A stretch of 37,240 bases of DNA. Source: a bacterium (GTDB taxonomy: Bacteria > UBP14 > UBA6098 > B30-G16). The position numbers and the translations under genes were made by a program. Below are positions 9,126-25,108 of the stretch, piece after piece; position 1 is the first letter of the stretch; each line of letters opens with the position of its first letter. The notes under the pieces were generated by a model. It had not been told where the DNA came from. It ran no database searches and saw nothing but the letters and a program-made list of their open reading frames with translations. The stretch covers positions 1-37,240 of the forward strand of contig JAUXEQ010000001.1 in the NCBI GenBank assembly GCA_030620455.1, in the 5' to 3' direction.

Positions 9126-9674
9126 TTAATACATCTCAGCCCGTACAACTGTAAATCCTGTTTGTCTAACTATATCCCTAACGCTTCCAAGTTTGGGATC
9201 AGGTTTCCCCGGTTCAGCTTCGATAAGCCTAATTTGTGATAGATCAACCTCAATTCGCTTTTTTGCAACATCTACTTTAATTCTTATAGGACCATAACCA
9301 TATCGAGTATAAATCCAACTTTGTAGAACCCTAATAATGTAATCATTGAAACGAGGTGAACCGGTTCTTTGAAGTATAGATGGCGATATTACAGCCGAGT
9401 CTACTATGTATTCGACAATCAAGGGTTTATCTGGAATACCATAGCTTTCCTTAACAATATCAAATTCCACATAATCAGTAGCATTAGCAATCCTAAATAT
9501 CGGATCTGGTGGAGGAGTATATCTCAAAGTAATTTTACCTAATCCACCCCTAAAAATAATTTTAGGTCCTTCTGGCAAGTTAATATACGACTCACCACCT
9601 TTACTTGCACAGCCTAACATAACGATGGACAAAAGAATGATTATTAACCCTATTGTAATAAATTTCCTGTTCAT
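9126..9674 (-). CDS. Lipoprotein with a possible TonB C-terminal-like domain (function uncertain)
   Basis: ATG overlaps the upstream exbD stop (ATGA), with AGGAGG 8 nt upstream. Signal peptide plus lipobox: MNRKFITIGLIIILLSIVMLGCASKGG. The segment VISPSILQRTGSPRFNDYIIRVLQSWIYTRYGYGPIRIKVDV resembles the TonB_C pattern (SSG..lD.aal.av..W.f.P....v.v.f). The position after exbB-exbD-exbD is where tonB usually sits. Confidence 0.5.
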   Translation of the reverse strand: MNRKFITIGLIIILLSIVMLGCASKGGESYINLPEGPKIIFRGGLGKITLRYTPPPDPIFRIANATDYVEFDIVKESYGIPDKPLIVEYIVDSAVISPSILQRTGSPRFNDYIIRVLQSWIYTRYGYGPIRIKVDVAKKRIEVDLSQIRLIEAEPGKPDPKLGSVRDIVRQTGFTVVRAEMY

Positions 9675-10812: not shown

Positions 10813-12156
10813 CTATGCCTGGTTAAGAATCTCGGTCATCAATTCTTCCCATTTACCGAAGATCCAATCCACTTTTCCACGGTAATAATAGTGTATTAAC
10901 ATCATCGGAATTCCAAACATCAAACCTACGATAGTTGTAATAAGAGCTATATAAATGCCACCTGCCAATTGTGGTACTATTACTGTAAGTTGAGCACTGG
11001 GATTTATTCTAATAGTTTCCTCAATTTTACCGAATGCCGATCTAATGCCAACTACTGTACCAAAGAGCCCCATCATAGGTTCAATAGAACCAATAGCCCA
11101 TAATCCGGTAACTTCCCAACCCTTAAGTTCGTCAAGTTCTTTTAGAACTGTGTTTTCAGCAGCTCGGTCCATCTCCTGGGAAGAATAGAAACTATTCCTA
11201 TTAGATCTATGATTTTCAAGGGCTGCAAGCATAACTCTTATTGTAGCATAATCTAAAGGTTTTTTGGGAAGCTTAATCCCGGGAACACCGTTCCGACAAA
11301 TTTCTATTGCCTTTTCAACATTTGGAAGACCTATATCCAACCACAGCTTCTTTGCCATTTCTTCTTCGAGATGTGCATCGGCTTTGATATATTCTTCCTT
11401 ACTCGTAAAATCTTCGGGACTGAGCGACATGGATTCCATAGCCTTTGACCAATATTTAGCAACTTCTCGAACGAAGACATTGCCTTTTGCACTTTGCATT
11501 TCCGTCTTTCCCACTCTATCAACAGGAAATATTCGGTATATAAGTCCGGGTTTATTTGGTGGAAATACATTGGCCAACCATAAACGTCTCCAAATTAAAA
11601 TCCATATAAGAATACCAAAAAAGAATAGCAGATGCTGAGGTATCATAAATACCATACTACCTTCCTTCACAAATTTCCAGTACCATTTAAAAATTCCCTT
11701 TCCTTCTGTTTTTATTGCTACGTGCTCGTGAAGGATACCCTCAGCGAAATCCCATCTGGATTGGAAATCGCCACTAGCTAAAACAACCCGCCACCAATAC
11801 TGTTTTCCAAAGTCCAACCCATCAAATGTATAGGACAATTCACCAGTTTCGCTTCTATTAACAATATTAGAAAAATTAGAATCAACCGCAACCTCAGCTC
11901 TGAATGTCAATCCAAGTTCAGCGGGGTCAGCAACTTTATCCCATTCACCGTAACTCATATTTCTTGCATCATACATTTTCTTGTAAACTTCCCAACCTAA
12001 AACAACCTGAAGATTACCAGCTTCATCCTTAAGGTTATCTGCGAGTGTAATATGAACCCATACGGAGTCCATGTTCTCTTCTTGCGCATTCACCGATCCC
12101 GGAATAAACAGAACTGCTGCCAATAGAACAGTTAGAAACGAAAGTCTCCTTAACAT
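10813..12156 (-). CDS. exbB: MotA/TolQ/ExbB-family proton-channel subunit with cleavable signal peptide and N-terminal FN3-like periplasmic domain
   Basis: C-terminal channel motifs GLWAIGSIEPMMGLFGTVVGI and LAGGIYIALITTIVGLMFGIPMMLIHYY. SD AAGGAGG. N-terminus MLRRLSFLTVLLAAVLFIPGSVNAQEE is followed by ~125 aa ending SYTFDGLDFGKQYWWRVVLASGDFQSRWDF, then TM1 (LLFFFGILIWILIW). Confidence 0.85.
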   Translation of the reverse strand: MLRRLSFLTVLLAAVLFIPGSVNAQEENMDSVWVHITLADNLKDEAGNLQVVLGWEVYKKMYDARNMSYGEWDKVADPAELGLTFRAEVAVDSNFSNIVNRSETGELSYTFDGLDFGKQYWWRVVLASGDFQSRWDFAEGILHEHVAIKTEGKGIFKWYWKFVKEGSMVFMIPQHLLFFFGILIWILIWRRLWLANVFPPNKPGLIYRIFPVDRVGKTEMQSAKGNVFVREVAKYWSKAMESMSLSPEDFTSKEEYIKADAHLEEEMAKKLWLDIGLPNVEKAIEICRNGVPGIKLPKKPLDYATIRVMLAALENHRSNRNSFYSSQEMDRAAENTVLKELDELKGWEVTGLWAIGSIEPMMGLFGTVVGIRSAFGKIEETIRINPSAQLTVIVPQLAGGIYIALITTIVGLMFGIPMMLIHYYYRGKVDWIFGKWEELMTEILNQA

Positions 12157-12342
12157 CAGAACCTCCTTTAATTATTGTTAGATAATTCCATTCAATTTAA
12201 TTTTATATCGATATCACTTCTCATTATCAAAACCGAACCATAAGTTTGTATATATAAGATTCTAACTATTTAATTTACAATATTAATACATTTCTATAAA
12301 TCATTTCAATCTTTGAACCGAATATCCATATAACAATACATA

Positions 12343-18840: not shown

Positions 18841-21800
18841 TTATCTGATTAAAATGACATTACTTATTGAACTGAATTTTTGCCCAGAGGCATCAACTAT
18901 GTATACTCCGCTGGGTAAAGCACGATCTGAATTATCTTTTCCATCCCACACAAGATTCAATATGCCCGGTTGAACAATGTCACTGTAAAGTTCTCTAACT
19001 GTTTTGCCTTTGATATCTCTAATGGAAACTGTCATCATATCCTTAGAGGGTATTGTAATCGCAATATTTACTTGAGCATTGAATGGATTAGGATAGGAAT
19101 TAATATTGAAGACTAAAGGCTTTGGATCGTAAGTAACTTCATATTTACCTGCTTGAAGTGGATATACATCGCCTTCATTAAGCTCATAATGAATACCCAT
19201 TCCTGAAATTTCCCATCTACCGTCAAGCAAACTTTGAACAGTTAGGTTAATCTCTTCGGGAACCTCGACAGTCCAATTCCCTGAATATGACAATCCTTTT
19301 AAAAGCATTTCATCCTCGTCACCAACAATATAAGACGGATAAGTCGTGGTCGGTAACGGAGGCATAATCACGTCATAACCATCGATGGCAAATTTTAACT
19401 TTTGGCAACCAAAAACTAAACTTGCATCGATAGGAAAATTAACAAAGCCCTTCAAGGATCCGCTATATCGAATATTTACTGTGGCATCTGTGGACAAAAG
19501 CATGAAATAACCTTTTCCAGCCTGCAACTCTTCAGCACTCACAAATCCTGAATCTGGATGATAACCTAAGACATTAGTTCGAGGATAAAAAGCTCCCAGA
19601 GGATTAACAGTAAAAACAGCATTACAAGCTGGGTCTCTTTTCGATAACCCTCCAATTATATGCCAACCACTACCGGTCAATCTTAACGAAAGCGATGGTA
19701 TGCTATATCCATCAATAGATTGATAGTGATCAACAATGCTGAGAATCCAATATCCAACTCCAACTTCGAGATCATAGGCATTTTCATACATTTTAGTTGC
19801 CGTATTATATTTGAAACAGTTGCCCAAAGGAATGTATGGGAATATTTCGTCTAACCTCATACTTGAAGGTATTAAAGGAAGACTAATTAAATTCCAACCT
19901 CTATAAAAATGGATCGTATCACTTTTACCTCTAAATAATGTATCTTCAAACTCAATCCATTGTGAATATGCACTTTCGTTACCATATTGGTCAATTGTAG
20001 CAATATGGAAAAATCTAAATGGTGCACCAACAATGATCGTATCTGGAAGTCTAATCGTGTCTCGTCTAATAGGTTTTTCTCTCCAAACAAGAAGAGAGTC
20101 ACCGGTGCATAACCATTCCGCTGCTGCCGTATGTTCTACTCTATACTTATTGAAATCAGACCAGCCAGGTGGTCCATAATCTGAAGGTGTAATATCTGTC
20201 CATGTAACAACAATCCAAATTTTGCTATCATGCGCTATATCCATATATACAGTATCAATTTCCACTGGATATGGTGGTGTATGAGGTGCAAATCCTTTTT
20301 GCCGTGGTTCAGATAGATCTTCTGATAAATTACCAAAACTATCGGCTACAACAATTGTATAGTAATTAGCTCTGAAATTATCCATAGGATCTGGATCGTC
20401 ATCGATAAATTCGTAAGAGGGTGCCCCGCTGTGAGATATCGATGCAATTAGGTCACCAATATTACCTTCAATACTCGATCTATAAATATCATAAGATTCA
20501 ACACCAATACCATCGTCAAAAGAACCGGGAAATGTAACGCTTACCATAAGTTCGTTCGTGCATTCAGCAATAGATTTAAGATCGTTAGCCATTACAGCCC
20601 GAGGTGGTGTTTGATCAAAATGTGTGACAACATAATTAGAAACAGCCTCGTTATTAATATTATCCCAGACCATAACTCTAAAGAAGTATGGTCCTTCAGA
20701 TATTCCATGAATAACGCATGTTAATGTATCCCAATCTGAACAATCGTAATCATCTGGATTTGAGAGCGCGATGTCATGAATCGACGAGAACATATAACTT
20801 ACTATTTCATCGGTAAATCCACTTCTTCGAGACTGTTCTACCATCAAACGAGTGATATCACAATGACTTGTATCTATTATTGTTAAAACAACAGAGTCAG
20901 CTTCACTCCATCGAGGTAGATCAATGAGTATCGGTGGAGCAACGCTTTTATCCGATTTCGTGCGAGTTCCCCCACCGAATACATAATGACCGACATGGTC
21001 AAAAAACAGGAGATAATAATAGTATTCTTTCCCATCAATAAGTCCTTCACCCACGTCCCACCAATAATAGTATCCTGTATCTTTATATTCTTCAATATTA
21101 AATACTTTAATATAAGAACGAGTAGTATCTAATATTGCCTCATCTTCAAGAGTATCGAATTCGTCTGCCAGAAGTCTATAAAGTCGGATTTCGGCTAATC
21201 CCGTTCCGCAATCAATTTCATCCTCAAAAGAAGTCCAAAATCGGATTACAATATCCCCATCATCATTGGGATTCGCAATAATGCTATCCGCACCTCTTAA
21301 AGGACCATTTATATCCGCAATAACGGTTTCTCTTTTATTATACCACTCTAAAATAGTATCGGGGTCTGTTGACCTTGCTCGTATTCCGAATATATATCTA
21401 TGGCAATCTTCCATAGCCCAATCGTTATGAGGTTGATCCCGCCATGCTGAAAGAAATGTGTCCCCCTCAGCTACATCTATTAATCTGTATTGATATTGCA
21501 TTTCCGGTCTTGGATAACAATGTTTGCTACTTTTTACTGTAAAATTGTCGGTAGTAATAACATTCGGAATTGGTTCGAGAATAGCGCACATTGGCATACC
21601 GCACTCCCCTGGACCTGATGTTACTACTTCATGCCATGGATTACCAGTTCTGGGATGATAACCAAGCGGTCCAGGAGGTAATCCTGCGCTGTCGAAAGGC
21701 ACAACGACATAATAGTATCTCTTTCTAAGTTCTATCGATTCATCTGTATAGAAATACATTATTGATCCGTCCTCGAAAACCGAATCGATAGCAAGGGTAA

Positions 21801-22323
21801 TATTATCGATAACACTAACTTTGCGTGGATCTGTAAACCGATATATTTTGTACATATGTATTGCAGATGCATTATCCTCAGCTCTTTCCCAGATAAGCTC
21901 GACCCTCTGAGGTGGATCACCACAGTAAAGAGCAATGAAGTATGGCACTACAGACGGTGGTTTTATGTCGTGAGTGATATCGATGGGAGCTGACCAATCT
22001 GAAGTATCTGCTCCAAAGGTTGCTCTAACCCGATACCAATATCTTTCACCGTCGTTGGCATTCAAAAATTTGCAAGTGTCCGCTTCAATGAATACTGTTG
22101 TTGAATCTGAACCACCAAAACTTCGATGTATGCGTCTAAACTGATATTTAGTTCCCGTGGGATTTCCGCTGCATGCCGAGTCAACTTTTGCAGTTATCGA
22201 AGCATATGGATAATAATAATGTCCTAATACTGGTGGATTCATAAGTTCTGCACATAAAGGTCCTATCTGCCCCAAAGCTAAGGAAAATGCCAAGAGCATT
22301 GTCAAAAAAACCAGCTTCCTCAT
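18841..22323 (-). CDS. 1160-aa surface protein: multiple FN3-like modules, GWNL/GYW domain, T9SS-type/FlgD-Ig-like C-terminal sorting domain
   Basis: The track ORF starts at 22395 and overlaps the M23 gene. The internal ATG at 22323 follows AAGGGGGAG and gives a clean signal peptide, MRKLVFLTMLLAFSLALGQ. FN3-like ends: YWYRVRATFGADTSDWS, YYYVVVPFDSAG, YIFGIRARS, YFFRVMVWDNINNEA, NYYTIVVADSFGNLS, FFHIATIDQYGNESAYS. Then FYRGWNLISLP...VGVGYWILSIVD...GKGYFMLL. C-terminus: INSYPNPFNAQVNIAI...VSIRDIKGKTV...LVWDGKDNSDRALPSGVYIV. Confidence 0.85.
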   Translation of the reverse strand: MRKLVFLTMLLAFSLALGQIGPLCAELMNPPVLGHYYYPYASITAKVDSACSGNPTGTKYQFRRIHRSFGGSDSTTVFIEADTCKFLNANDGERYWYRVRATFGADTSDWSAPIDITHDIKPPSVVPYFIALYCGDPPQRVELIWERAEDNASAIHMYKIYRFTDPRKVSVIDNITLAIDSVFEDGSIMYFYTDESIELRKRYYYVVVPFDSAGLPPGPLGYHPRTGNPWHEVVTSGPGECGMPMCAILEPIPNVITTDNFTVKSSKHCYPRPEMQYQYRLIDVAEGDTFLSAWRDQPHNDWAMEDCHRYIFGIRARSTDPDTILEWYNKRETVIADINGPLRGADSIIANPNDDGDIVIRFWTSFEDEIDCGTGLAEIRLYRLLADEFDTLEDEAILDTTRSYIKVFNIEEYKDTGYYYWWDVGEGLIDGKEYYYYLLFFDHVGHYVFGGGTRTKSDKSVAPPILIDLPRWSEADSVVLTIIDTSHCDITRLMVEQSRRSGFTDEIVSYMFSSIHDIALSNPDDYDCSDWDTLTCVIHGISEGPYFFRVMVWDNINNEAVSNYVVTHFDQTPPRAVMANDLKSIAECTNELMVSVTFPGSFDDGIGVESYDIYRSSIEGNIGDLIASISHSGAPSYEFIDDDPDPMDNFRANYYTIVVADSFGNLSEDLSEPRQKGFAPHTPPYPVEIDTVYMDIAHDSKIWIVVTWTDITPSDYGPPGWSDFNKYRVEHTAAAEWLCTGDSLLVWREKPIRRDTIRLPDTIIVGAPFRFFHIATIDQYGNESAYSQWIEFEDTLFRGKSDTIHFYRGWNLISLPLIPSSMRLDEIFPYIPLGNCFKYNTATKMYENAYDLEVGVGYWILSIVDHYQSIDGYSIPSLSLRLTGSGWHIIGGLSKRDPACNAVFTVNPLGAFYPRTNVLGYHPDSGFVSAEELQAGKGYFMLLSTDATVNIRYSGSLKGFVNFPIDASLVFGCQKLKFAIDGYDVIMPPLPTTTYPSYIVGDEDEMLLKGLSYSGNWTVEVPEEINLTVQSLLDGRWEISGMGIHYELNEGDVYPLQAGKYEVTYDPKPLVFNINSYPNPFNAQVNIAITIPSKDMMTVSIRDIKGKTVRELYSDIVQPGILNLVWDGKDNSDRALPSGVYIVDASGQKFSSISNVILIR

Positions 22324-22381
22324 AAAGCTCCCCCTTAATTTATCAATTTTTTTGGATATTTTACTAAACTTAACTTTGCAT

Positions 22382-23647
22382 CTATCCTTGTTCAAGTGAA
22401 AAATCCTTTTTTAAAGAATTATTTGAATTTGCATTGACAAAAATCTGTACTCCTTTAATAATTGAATCTGCATACTTTTTAAATATTTCCAAATATTTTT
22501 TCTTTACTGGTGGTCCAGTTGGAAAGGCATATTTTTCTGGATTAACAAACTTTCCGTTTACTTTAACTCTGTAATCGAGATGCGGACCAGTGGAAAGCCC
22601 AGTTGAACCGACATATCCTATCACCTGTCCTCGTTTTACTTTCACACCTTTCCTGATACCTCGGGTAAAACGCGATAAATGTCCATACATAGTTTCTATA
22701 TTATCCTTACCGGGGTGTTTTATATGGATAAATTTACCGAACCCTCCTTTCCATCCGCAATATACTACAGTGCCAGAACCCGATGCGGATACAGGAGTAC
22801 CAATAGGTGCAGCATAATCTATACCCTTATGTGGTCTGTATATCTTCAGTATCGGGTGAAAACGGCGATAAGAGAAATGAGAACTTATTCGACTGAAAAC
22901 GAGAGGGCATTTTAAATGAGATTTTTTCATCGACTTTCCTTTAAGATTATAATATCCCTCAGTTCCAGTAGGATCAGAATAATGTATAGCAGTATAAGTT
23001 TTCACTCTATCAACTAGTTTTTTAGTTGCCTTATCTCTTTCTTTGTAAGATTTACTATACTCCGCTAAGAGAATTTTTCCAATTCCCACAATTTCATCCC
23101 TGAAAATAAGTTTCTCGTATACTATTTTAAATCGATCCCCTTTGCGAGTCTCAGTGTTAAAATCGATATCATAAGCAAGGACATCTGTGAAATCGTAAAT
23201 AGCTCTCATTTCAATGGATTTGCTAAACATAGACTCGGATAATGTATTCTCAACAACTCCCTGTGCAGAGAAAATTACTTTTCTCAAAGGTATTGTATCC
23301 TTAGCGACTTGAAATGTATCTCCTATTTTCTTTACAGTATATTTTTCCCAACGAGAACGAGTAACCTCAAATTCTAGAAGATTCTCCAAGCTATCATATT
23401 CAATCGAGAAATGATCCCCAGGATAAATCTTTCCCATATCGAGAACCGATGAAATGCAAGAGATCGCTTGATTAACAGCCTTAAACGGAATGCCACGATC
23501 AATTAGAACCTGTGAAAGGGTTTGATTCGTATATACATCGCCTTGAGCAATGCAAGTCATCCCCTCAATTGGTTCAATCGAGATAAGCAGCATGTTTAGT
23601 ACTGCAAACATTGCGATCGAAGAAATTTTATACTTATAAGAACCCAT
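22382..23647 (-). CDS. M23-family (LytM/MepM-like) peptidoglycan metalloendopeptidase
   Basis: Catalytic motifs HKGIDYAAPIGTPV, MYGHLSRF and GSTGLSTGPHLDYRV. N-terminal membrane anchor plus a MepM/Csd3-type N-domain. No obvious SD, so the exact start is uncertain. Confidence 0.88.
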   Translation of the reverse strand: MGSYKYKISSIAMFAVLNMLLISIEPIEGMTCIAQGDVYTNQTLSQVLIDRGIPFKAVNQAISCISSVLDMGKIYPGDHFSIEYDSLENLLEFEVTRSRWEKYTVKKIGDTFQVAKDTIPLRKVIFSAQGVVENTLSESMFSKSIEMRAIYDFTDVLAYDIDFNTETRKGDRFKIVYEKLIFRDEIVGIGKILLAEYSKSYKERDKATKKLVDRVKTYTAIHYSDPTGTEGYYNLKGKSMKKSHLKCPLVFSRISSHFSYRRFHPILKIYRPHKGIDYAAPIGTPVSASGSGTVVYCGWKGGFGKFIHIKHPGKDNIETMYGHLSRFTRGIRKGVKVKRGQVIGYVGSTGLSTGPHLDYRVKVNGKFVNPEKYAFPTGPPVKKKYLEIFKKYADSIIKGVQIFVNANSNNSLKKDFSLEQG

Positions 23648-23683: not shown

Positions 23684-25108
23684 TTATCTTATAATTTTAT
23701 CTAAAGAAATTTCCTTTTCAAAAGCCTTAACAATAAAATAATAGACATCGGTTTCTGAATCGCACCAACTTTTCGACAGAATACCAGCTTGCATACACAC
23801 TCTATCTAATCGCATCGATGGTGATATATCAGAATCTTCCCATGGCATTACAATACCATCTTTAGTTCCCTGTCGAATATAAATACCCAAATCAGGACTA
23901 GGTTCCTCAACTCCCTCGACTATTTTAGTTAACCCAACAACCAATGTAGCATTCTCGAACGTTCTTCTTCTACTCGACGTGTGTTTAAGAGAATATTTCA
24001 AAGACTTACATAAGCTTTTTGCCGTCTCGGAGAAAGGTCTTGTTGAGAAAAGATCCCCATTTCTCACTAGAATTTTGTCATCGATTTTAATAGTGATAAA
24101 TACTCCACATCGAAGATTGGAAATCCTTCGTGGAAGAACCGGTGGATTCTGTCCAATTAGAATATTATAAATGTATTTTAATAACAAATCTCTATCTTTA
24201 TCATTAATTGTTTCTAAAGCTAAAGTATTATGAGATTTATATGTTTTTCTTACATCAATCCACGCTATCGAGGCTATCCCACAAATCTCTGCGGTTGGAA
24301 ATCCTGAATTTACATACCCCTTAACGACAATTCCTGTATCGGCACCAAGCGCTCTTACTAATTTAATTGAAAATGCTGACCCCCAAGGGTTAGAAAGATT
24401 ATATTTCCCAGTTTCAAAATTTTCTACAATGACTTTCTCCATCATAGCTGTCATTATTACCATTGTCGACCTGAAAGTGCGAGTAACTTCCCTTGCATCT
24501 TCGCCCTTTGCCAGATTTGAAACATTTACAATAAGCGGATCATATTCTGAAAATAAATGGGAACAACTGTTAGCAATTCCATCGAGGACGTTATCATCTT
24601 CCTTACCAACAAGGAAAACTATAAGAGGCGTCGATCTAAACGAGTATTGTGTAAAGGGTAATTGAAACCAAAAACTTTTTGGTGGACATTCGTCAACTAA
24701 TTTTATTTTGGGTATTCTTTCACTAATCTTTTTCACGAGTGTAGAGTCAATAATCTGAGTGCCTAAAGGAGTTTTGAAGTATTTGAATTTCATAATTGAA
24801 ACCCCCTTTTGACCCGGTGGAGCTTCCACAATAACAACAATCAACTTTTTCCTTTCCTGAGATGCCAAATTATATGCTGCACCAATAACAGTTCCGGAAA
24901 AAAGATAGCTCTCTTCAGGCACTAAAATTCCAATAATATTACCCCTAAGTGGTCGAGGTTTAACCATATTAATATAATCTGTAATTTGATCCCAAAGGAC
25001 AGTGGGATCAGAGGGGAAAAGACCATTTTCAGCACAATATTCTTCAACTAAGTTCTGGCTAAAAACTACTCCCAAAAAAGCCAAAACCAACAATATGTTT
25101 AATTTCAA
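23684..25108 (-). CDS. Secreted Memo-like / AMMECR1-like fusion protein with degenerate active-site motifs
   Basis: TTG start at 25108 lies 9 nt after GGAGG. Signal peptide MKLNILLVLAFLGVVFSQ. The N-terminal half is collinear with Memo (GILVPEESYLFSGTVIGAAYN; LIVVIVEAPPG; TPLGTQIID; PLIVNVSNLAKGE). The C-terminal half is collinear with AMMECR1 (CGVFITIKIDDKILVRNGDL; LGIYIRQGTKDGIVMPWE; CMQAGILSKSW...YYFIVKAFEKE). Confidence 0.7.
   Translation of the reverse strand: MKLNILLVLAFLGVVFSQNLVEEYCAENGLFPSDPTVLWDQITDYINMVKPRPLRGNIIGILVPEESYLFSGTVIGAAYNLASQERKKLIVVIVEAPPGQKGVSIMKFKYFKTPLGTQIIDSTLVKKISERIPKIKLVDECPPKSFWFQLPFTQYSFRSTPLIVFLVGKEDDNVLDGIANSCSHLFSEYDPLIVNVSNLAKGEDAREVTRTFRSTMVIMTAMMEKVIVENFETGKYNLSNPWGSAFSIKLVRALGADTGIVVKGYVNSGFPTAEICGIASIAWIDVRKTYKSHNTLALETINDKDRDLLLKYIYNILIGQNPPVLPRRISNLRCGVFITIKIDDKILVRNGDLFSTRPFSETAKSLCKSLKYSLKHTSSRRRTFENATLVVGLTKIVEGVEEPSPDLGIYIRQGTKDGIVMPWEDSDISPSMRLDRVCMQAGILSKSWCDSETDVYYFIVKAFEKEISLDKIIR

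Follow-up and report, generated by a model that had tools for sequence, protein, structure and literature searches.

The 37,240-nt stretch analysed here (contig JAUXEQ010000001.1 of assembly GCA_030620455.1, from a bacterium of the lineage UBP14; hereafter the window) encodes a 447-aa protein of the MotA/TolQ/ExbB family that carries an N-terminal fibronectin type III (FN3) domain. Its open reading frame (ORF), at positions 10813-12156 on the minus strand, is referred to as FN3-ExbB and belongs to a conserved cluster of eight genes. We favour, with moderate confidence, the reading that this protein is the stator of a dedicated third TolQ/ExbB-ExbD-type motor that runs on the proton motive force (PMF), and that a crown of its FN3 domains docks periplasmic partners encoded in the same cluster. 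The strict synteny of FN3-ExbB with two giant proteins carrying a C-terminal domain (CTD) points to a dedicated, undescribed envelope machine. Our literature search found no paper describing an FN3-ExbB fusion or the eight-gene cluster. A 2025 survey of periplasmic force transducers lists other non-canonical TolQ partners (vWA proteins), not the FN3-ExbB type (PMC12204202).

Domain architecture of FN3-ExbB

The gap between exbB and its upstream gene is 186 nt long and AT-rich, and the start codon is preceded by a Shine-Dalgarno sequence (Table 1). Scans for promoters and terminators across the cluster gave counts at chance level. An alignment of 28 homologues (45-95% identity), throughout which the full domain architecture is kept, was used to build an AlphaFold2 (AF2) model of the protein, with a mean predicted local distance difference test score (pLDDT) of 77. 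The model starts with a helix (residues 2-17), followed by seven to eight beta strands within residues 30-141, the first transmembrane helix (TM1; 168-193), cytoplasmic helices at about 205-345 and two long helices holding TM2 and TM3. The linker between the beta-rich domain and TM1 falls below a pLDDT of 50 at residues 143-151 and has the lowest conservation of all regions, with 22% identity among distant family members. The hydropathy of TM1 peaks at residues 170-188 (2.17), and the positive charges of an RR pair lie on its C-terminal side.

The N-terminus (MLRRLSFLTVLLAAVLFIPGSVNA, followed by QEE) shows a basic n-region, a hydrophobic core and a c-region ending in V-N-A. The hydrophobic stretch covers residues 5-23 with a Kyte-Doolittle mean of 1.97; Ala at position -1 is nearly invariant, and Ala-Gln is found in 23 of the 28 family members. 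We infer that a signal peptide is cleaved between Ala24 (12085-12087) and Gln25 (12082-12084), which would leave Gln as the new N-terminus in those 23 members. This Ala-Gln site is reminiscent of the N-terminal Gln rule ("Q-rule"), which has been reported as specific to Bacteroidetes (PMC5837995). The FN3 domain is predicted to lie in the periplasm whether or not the leader is cleaved, because of the positive-inside charge distribution, in agreement with the N-out topology of ExbB.

The N-terminal FN3 domain

AF2 placed the strands of the N-domain at residues 30-43, 49-63, 85-90, 98-104, 108-114, 119-126 and 132-141. After ExbB/TolQ chains, Foldseek retrieved FN3 modules, namely 1ttf (the tenth FN3 of fibronectin), EpoR and RPTP fn3 (probability 1.0, target-normalised TM-score [TMt] 0.55-0.63); 2dle and 2dlh were among the entries matched. 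Judged from the model, the N-domain is a true FN3, a seven-strand beta-sandwich. Its conserved residues are the FN3 core residues W55, L114 and Y120, together with two DS motifs. Pfam fn3 (PF00041) had no match in the 447-aa protein itself at E ≤ 0.1. In a family profile search covering 1.8 billion representative proteins, profile positions ~72-135 matched repeats in many unrelated giant proteins, 5-32 of them in each, and Pfam fn3 is carried by both multi-repeat giants that were checked (P0084 and P0182). The distant ExbB fusions P0074 and P0077 combine Pfam fn3 (39.7 and 42.1 bits, cut-off 25) with a C-terminal MotA_ExbB domain.

Six relatives (L007-L012), a clade at 65-68% ExbB identity, encode a paralogous ORF of ~185 aa directly upstream of exbB, between it and a gene for an outer-membrane barrel of the PorV/PorQ family fused to tetratricopeptide repeats (PorV/Q-TPR). 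Besides a signal peptide and an FN3, its product has one TM helix and a basic tail, and it shares 35% identity over 113 aa with the ExbB N-domain (E = 9e-20). The gene, which is absent from the window's own genome, has the look of a duplication of the "FN3+TM1" module.

Motor core and cytoplasmic domain

MotA_ExbB (PF01618) was the sole Pfam family found in the protein, covering residues 308-437 at 65.9 bits (cut-off 22.9). The NCBIfam models scored 57.3 bits for TolQ (TIGR02796, cut-off 221) and 39 bits for ExbB (TIGR02797, cut-off 206.2), both far under the equivalogue cut-off, and profile comparison against the PDB gave E-values of 1.5e-11 for TolQ and 5.7e-8 for ExbB. By these sequence scores, the channel core is nearer to TolQ than to ExbB and the protein represents a separate subfamily. 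ExbB/TolQ chains ranked first in the Foldseek search against the PDB (6tyi_A, 8odt_A and 9avi_A; probability 1.0, TMt 0.5-0.6). In the predicted model, the ExbB fold spans residues ~165-447, with 290 columns aligned to 6tyi_A, and the N-out TM1, the cytoplasmic helical domain and the TM2-TM3 hairpin make up the ExbB/TolQ fold.

The pore threonines T367, T407 and T408 are invariant in the 28 family sequences. In a hidden Markov model (HMM) alignment, the motifs GLFGTV (TM2) and ALIxT (TM3) align with E. coli TolQ; T367 and T408 lie inside them and presumably correspond to T145 and T178 of E. coli TolQ. The position aligned with the Glu that we take to be E173 of TolQ and E176 of ExbB is occupied by Tyr, Gln or His in the FN3-ExbB family. 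The two ExbD paralogues encoded directly downstream of exbB both retain the membrane Asp D18, within the motif [LM][IV]DIIFQ. Since the threonine rings and the ExbD membrane Asp are retained, proton-driven movement is expected.

In Foldseek, the cytoplasmic region (residues 194-345) has its structural match in the ExbB/TolQ cytoplasmic domain. The cytoplasmic loop of E. coli ExbB has ~90 aa, and on this basis we estimate that the region is the canonical domain lengthened by ~60 aa, with no foreign insert. Motifs of the family in this region are FPPNKP, GNxFxREVAKYW, NGVPGIKL and AALENHRxNxNxxxxSQEMDRA. The domain is among the best-kept regions of the protein, with 58% identity in distant members compared with 35% for the FN3.

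A first-pass annotation of this DNA, made from the sequence without database searches, had described a stator with a signal peptide, a periplasmic beta-rich N-domain resembling FN3, and TM1. This description is borne out by the sequence features, AF2 and Pfam, and for the FN3 likeness by the AF2 strands and the Foldseek matches. It had also confined the canonical channel helices to the last ~110 aa and placed a ~150-aa cytoplasmic insert before them. This view had to be revised, as the ExbB fold begins already around residue 165 and the supposed insert is the lengthened canonical domain.

A conserved eight-gene cluster

The cluster consists, in order, of two CTD giants (~1100-1200 and ~1530-1600 aa across loci), the PorV/Q-TPR protein (~600 aa), FN3-ExbB, two ExbD proteins, a lipoprotein (~182 aa) and a protein with TPR and an NHL propeller (TPR-NHL; ~1070-1130 aa). 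Counting the genes that fit on the contig, the same order was found at 21 of 21 related genome loci, down to 45% ExbB identity. The FN3-ExbB gene is single-copy in 24 of the 26 genomes of the phylum (17 of the 18 high-quality genomes). Across the related loci, no TonB-dependent receptor was found as a conserved neighbour. The TPR-NHL gene closes the cluster at all loci, also in distant lineages.

The lipoprotein occupies the position of TonB/TolA. Among 20 orthologues, the Cys22 of its lipobox hardly varies, and the protein showed no Pfam, NCBIfam or PDB-profile match, no TonB_C domain and no proline-rich spacer.

The first giant is annotated as a 1184-aa ORF. Its Por_Secre_tail score is just under the cut-off both in Pfam (24.8 bits, cut-off 27) and in TIGR04183 (22.7 bits, cut-off 23). 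At 22323-22395, the listed TTG start of this ORF overlaps the M23 peptidase gene and heads a Lys-rich leader. The true product is probably ~1160 aa long, because a typical signal peptide starts at an internal Met (MRKLVFLTMLLAFSLALG).

The distant long ExbBs P0086, P0121, P0097 and P0080 matched the family profile with E-values of 1e-34 to 1e-44. Their four loci keep a core composed of the long ExbB, three genes of ~160-210 aa (ExbD by Pfam where detected) and a protein of ~1075 aa with NHL in three of four. At the P0121 locus, the order of all eight genes recurs. P0086 and P0121 were confirmed to have PorV/Q-TPR fusions and CTD proteins at their loci, and P0097 to have a CTD protein. The PorV/Q-TPR gene lies upstream of the distant long ExbB, directly adjacent in L040 and with a 359-aa ORF between them in L031. 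One named host, "Calditrichaeota bacterium", turned up for this wider family.

A Memo-like gene recurs within a few kb of the cluster, on different sides of it, in the window's clade (window 23684-25108) and in two distant lineages (L031:17258-18073 and L041:13391-14230). In Fibrobacter succinogenes S85, the MotA/TolQ/ExbB protein Fisuc_0042/FSU_0435 (57.9 kDa, signal peptide predicted) was detected in cellulose-grown cells only (PMC4619616). The TPR protein Fisuc_0038 has a nearby locus tag, and Fisuc_0042 may represent a counterpart of the long-ExbB module in a cultured organism.

Table 1 Features of the FN3-ExbB gene, its cluster in the window, and the ~185-aa paralogues in relatives
Feature	Position	Strand	Basis
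TPR / NHL-propeller protein, exported, 1101 aa	5696..9001	-	Pfam NHL 1.1e-11 and weak TPR matches
Lipoprotein, 182 aa, in TonB/TolA position	9126..9674	-	Lipobox; conserved neighbour
ExbD/TolR paralogue 2, 189 aa	9671..10240	-	Pfam ExbD 2e-10; SMVDIIFQ; conserved neighbour
ExbD/TolR paralogue 1, 181 aa	10253..10798	-	Pfam ExbD 1.2e-9; SLIDIIFQ; conserved neighbour
FN3-ExbB: C-terminal cytoplasmic helix, residues 423-447, and stop codon	10813..10890	-	Alignment, AF2
FN3-ExbB: TM2, periplasmic loop and TM3 (channel core)	10891..11121	-	Pfam PF01618, TolQ alignment
FN3-ExbB: enlarged cytoplasmic helical domain, residues 194-345	11122..11577	-	Conservation, structural alignment to ExbB/TolQ
FN3-ExbB: TM1, residues ~168-193	11578..11655	-	Hydropathy and AF2 helix
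FN3-ExbB: linker	11656..11730	-	Low-confidence 143-151 and amphipathic helix 155-165 (AF2)
FN3-ExbB: FN3 domain, predicted periplasmic, residues ~25-142	11731..12084	-	AF2 strands, Foldseek, family profile
FN3-ExbB: predicted signal peptide, residues 1-24 (MLRRLSFLTVLLAAVLFIPGSVNA)	12085..12156	-	Predicted cleavage between Ala24 and Gln25
Shine-Dalgarno sequence AAGGAGG	12162..12168	-	Spacer of 5 nt to ATG at 12156; direct sequence reading
PorV/PorQ-family outer-membrane barrel fused to TPR, 601 aa	12343..14148	-	NCBIfam PorV_fam 110.9 bits, cut-off 90
CTD giant, 1537 aa	14187..18800	-	CTD matches: CHU_C, FlgD_ig, PorU C-terminal region
CTD giant, 1184 aa (probably 1160 aa)	18841..22395	-	FlgD_ig 1.2e-8; conserved first cluster gene
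~185-aa paralogue loci	L007:9929-10489, L008:9929-10486, L009:3866-4426, L010:8478-9020, L011:9992-10543, L012:9941-10501

Proposed role of the FN3 crown

In the mechanism that we favour, the protein would be exported by Sec, and cleavage between Ala24 and Gln25 would free a folded periplasmic FN3 that stays tethered to TM1 by a linker of ~25 residues. By analogy with the solved ExbB and TolQ complexes, the stator would be the pentamer of a 5:2 motor, whose five FN3s may form a crown on the motor's periplasmic side, encircling the place where the two ExbD paralogues emerge. This crown could serve as a docking or force-output module for the lipoprotein and the TPR-NHL protein as candidate partners. 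Through them the motor might reach the PorV/Q-TPR outer-membrane barrel, which would handle the two CTD giants. TonB and TolA dock on TM1 of their motors (structures 9ddo and 9ddm), whereas no gene of the cluster in this phylum codes for a TonB/TolA-like transducer that has a membrane helix and long spacer. The lack of a TM-anchored transducer that could dock on TM1 is the main reason for favouring a role of the crown in periplasmic coupling. The ~185-aa paralogue of the six relatives also speaks for this mechanism, as a sign that FN3+TM1 is modular. It is more economical, too, to assume that the FN3 docks a scaffold or transducer in the periplasm than that it touches the cargo, because the giants are expected at the cell surface and the FN3 of ExbB at the inner-membrane face.

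Several points weigh against this reading. Signal-peptide cleavage is a prediction from sequence features. The FN3 is less conserved in distant members (35%) than the cytoplasmic domain and the channel (58-62%), and the N-domain of some distant long ExbBs, such as P0097, no longer matches the profile. For these two reasons, the FN3 could be a spacer or stabiliser instead of a specific docking site. In addition, the PDB-profile search gave the lipoprotein no demonstrable TonB-like fold.

If the favoured reading is right, the outer, presumably rotating, pentamer subunit bears a folded periplasmic adaptor in a system where a transducer of the TonB/TolA kind is missing. This suggests a different coupling geometry, in which force is taken off a periplasmic crown and not from a helix docked on TM1.

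Other motors and secretion genes, and alternative explanations

The window's own genome contains, on contig C244, a canonical operon exbB (208 aa)-exbD-exbD-tonB with a proline-rich TonB. This separate Ton operon, together with the strict synteny of the cluster, suggests that FN3-ExbB belongs to a dedicated system. A third TolQ-like gene of the same genome (224 aa, contig C116; G000:C116:447-3647) has no ExbD/TolR after it; what follows is an exported protein of 838+ aa with many G-x-D-D-x-Y-type repeats and C-terminal HEAT-like repeats.

The cluster also ties a Tol/Ton-type engine to PorV-family barrels and CTD giants in lineages seemingly without the canonical type IX secretion system (T9SS) motor, and thus raises a directly testable question, namely what the energy source of T9SS-like secretion is outside Bacteroidota. 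The canonical secretion and gliding motor of Bacteroidota, GldL5-GldM2 (PorL/PorM), is a 5:2 PMF motor tied to PorV-family barrels and CTD-tagged surface proteins. The cluster motor might replace GldL/GldM as the engine of a GldLM-independent type IX-like secretion/attachment system or of a surface-adhesin conveyor, with the FN3 crown, lipoprotein and TPR-NHL protein standing in for the periplasmic parts GldM, GldKN, PorW and PorE. In that case, the outer-membrane machinery of the T9SS would independently have recruited a stator of the Tol/Ton type. Of 16 genomes, 15 have SprA, and PorU occurs in 26 of 26, beside many CTD proteins and PorV-family barrels, and the near-universal cluster itself holds a PorV/Q-family barrel and CTD cargo. 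The models of GldL (TIGR03513) and GldM (TIGR03517) had no match in 16 genomes, and Pfam GldM (PF12081) gave nothing credible in 26 genomes, with two matches of E~0.015 below the cut-off; the missing matches speak for the replacement, but the searches were made without a positive control, which counts against it.

The GldK-like matches in these genomes are FGE-sulfatase proteins. A hidden gldKLMN operon was considered and rejected, since no gld operon surrounds the GldK-like genes in the two neighbourhoods inspected. The best match (L038:6876-8390, G007:C3) is an FGE-sulfatase with N-terminal Big_7 and fn3 domains; downstream of it are genes for a metallo-beta-lactamase-fold protein, a TSP3/OmpA-family protein and a heptosyltransferase. 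Downstream of the second GldK-like gene are an amino-acid kinase and a semialdehyde dehydrogenase. While the position of these genes outside a gldKLMN operon fits the replacement of GldLM, the PorV family does not. It is expanded to 9-22 matches per genome (in the own genome on contigs C159, C237 and C201), and the copy next to PorU in three relatives (G010:C156, G011:C17 and G012:C34) is another PorV-family protein of ~830 aa, whose ORF lies 1.6-2.5 kb from PorU. The notion that the cluster PorV/Q-TPR is the only PorV was rejected accordingly. Several PorV-domain ORFs are ~960-1000 aa long. As the cluster barrel is not the PorU-adjacent copy, the module would be specialised for its own two giants and not be a general T9SS engine. 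We therefore consider the replacement of GldLM doubtful, and a connection to T9SS energisation outside Bacteroidota plausible but unproven.

The TolQ-like core leads to another explanation, that of a Tol-Pal-like system for envelope integrity or division, whose TolQ-like stator would work with two TolR-like proteins, a small lipoprotein of the periplasm and a protein in which a CpoB-like TPR part is fused to a propeller, and to which the surface-protein genes would be adjacent only through operon history. The TPR regions in distant clusters give weak YbgF/CpoB matches, M23 peptidase and FtsK genes lie nearby, and the near-universal presence of the cluster suits a core function. The TolB of the own genome (430 aa, G000:C4:58-1350) has no tolQ-tolR-tolA upstream; by eye, the genes upstream of it resemble Rnf-complex subunits. 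However, the core score of FN3-ExbB is far under the TolQ equivalogue cut-off (57 against 221 bits), and a separate canonical TolB equivalogue exists in 24 of the 26 genomes. Moreover, the two CTD giants and the PorV/Q barrel, which have no Tol-Pal counterpart, are always present, and the cluster contains no Pal/OmpA-type protein. A Tol-Pal-like function is unlikely on balance.

The first-pass annotation had proposed that the N-domain shares its terminal strand pattern with the first modules of both giants, and that a domain type common to stator and cargo suggests direct coupling of the motor to cargo or scaffold. In the case of cargo contact, the stator FN3 would touch FN3 modules of the giants, for example by homotypic or strand-swap interactions, during their transit through the periplasm. 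AF2 modelled residues 1-170 of the 1537-aa giant from 15 orthologues with a pLDDT of 85, and Foldseek matched its module 1 with the FN3s of titin, NCAM and LAR (TMt up to 0.78), so this module, as modelled, is an FN3 too. In BLASTP, the N-domain had a single 28-aa match in the 1184-aa protein (E = 0.009), containing the motif GxxYWxRV...W, and no match in the 1537-aa protein. Alignment of orthologue profiles with hhalign gave the N-domain a probability of 0.2% with the 1184-aa protein's first module. The sole alignment with the 1537-aa protein reached 0.4% and fell at residues 330-414, away from the first module, and the best match overall (10.6%) was with an internal module of the 1184-aa protein (residues 509-591). 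Run against the genome's entire set of 3599 ORFs with E ≤ 10, the N-domain HMM found only itself. A specific homology between the N-domain and the giants was rejected on these grounds, as BLASTP, hhalign and the HMM show generic or no similarity.

The resemblance to the giants is thus one of fold plus a short generic signature of FN3 F/G strands. The terminal strand pattern is literally there, as had been noted, but only as this generic signature; likewise, the 1537-aa giant has a module 1 that is FN3 by fold, and hhalign shows no specific kinship with it. The step from a shared domain type to motor-cargo contact is not upheld, since the similarity remains at this level and FN3 is common in giant multi-repeat proteins, while a true domain paralogue of the N-domain, the ~185-aa gene, scores E = 9e-20. 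The mature cargo is moreover expected outside the cell, and the stator FN3 at the inner membrane. Strict synteny of the stator and giant genes is compatible with direct cargo contact, which we nevertheless regard as very unlikely. It is synteny, and not likeness of domains, that supports a functional link to the CTD giants.

It is scarcely tenable that the motor imports nutrients as an ordinary Ton system whose N-terminal domain is decoration or a stabiliser, for although the protein belongs to the ExbB/ExbD family and locus L001 has a TonB-dependent receptor about 7 kb downstream, no such receptor is conserved nearby, the canonical operon with Pro-rich TonB lies elsewhere in the genome, and the TonB position is taken by a lipoprotein without spacer or detectable TonB_C. 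The earlier view that this is not a generic Ton stator agrees with the separate exbB-exbD-exbD-tonB operon, the conserved cluster and the lack of a conserved receptor. The question whether the extended ExbB occurs broadly in ordinary TonB-receptor contexts, set beforehand as a possible refutation, turned out to favour a dedicated function.

Comparison with known motors

FN3-ExbB shares with the E. coli complexes ExbB5-ExbD2 and TolQ5-TolR2 (6tyi, 5sv0, 8odt and 9ddm) the MotA_ExbB core, the N-out topology with three TM helices, the helical cytoplasmic domain, the pore threonines of TM2/TM3 and an adjacent ExbD/TolR with a TM Asp. In contrast to them, it has a predicted cleaved signal peptide, a folded FN3 of 118 aa and ~60 additional cytoplasmic residues, and it is accompanied by two long ExbD paralogues and by no TM-anchored TonB/TolA.

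The "long" ExbB of Serratia marcescens and Alphaproteobacteria is known to possess a signal peptide and an N-terminal periplasmic extension, which in Serratia binds HasB, the partner transducer, at its periplasmic domain (Biou et al. 2022, PMC9008036). These extensions average ~50 residues, are Ala/Pro-rich and predicted to be disordered, and the class co-occurs with hasB (PMC9008036). FN3-ExbB shares the signal peptide and a periplasmic extension at the N-terminus with this class. It differs by its folded FN3, its enlarged cytoplasmic domain and a PorV/CTD context in place of haem uptake.

The 5:2 motors (MotAB, ExbBD, TolQR, GldLM and ZorAB) represent one engine with many outputs, and how they are coupled to these outputs is an open question. 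In Myxococcus, the AglRQS/Glt gliding machinery couples a TolQ/TolR-type motor to a surface adhesin, to outer-membrane barrels and to periplasmic proteins rich in TPR; AglR, AglQ and AglS are not known to carry an FN3 extension. The periplasmic parts of GldLM include TPR and propeller proteins (PorW and PorE), and in this respect GldLM is like the present cluster. However, GldLM is another protein family, and the GldL/GldM models match nothing credible here. The part that spans the periplasm is the inner dimer, GldM, in GldLM, whereas the extra periplasmic domain of FN3-ExbB is borne by the subunit of the outer pentamer.

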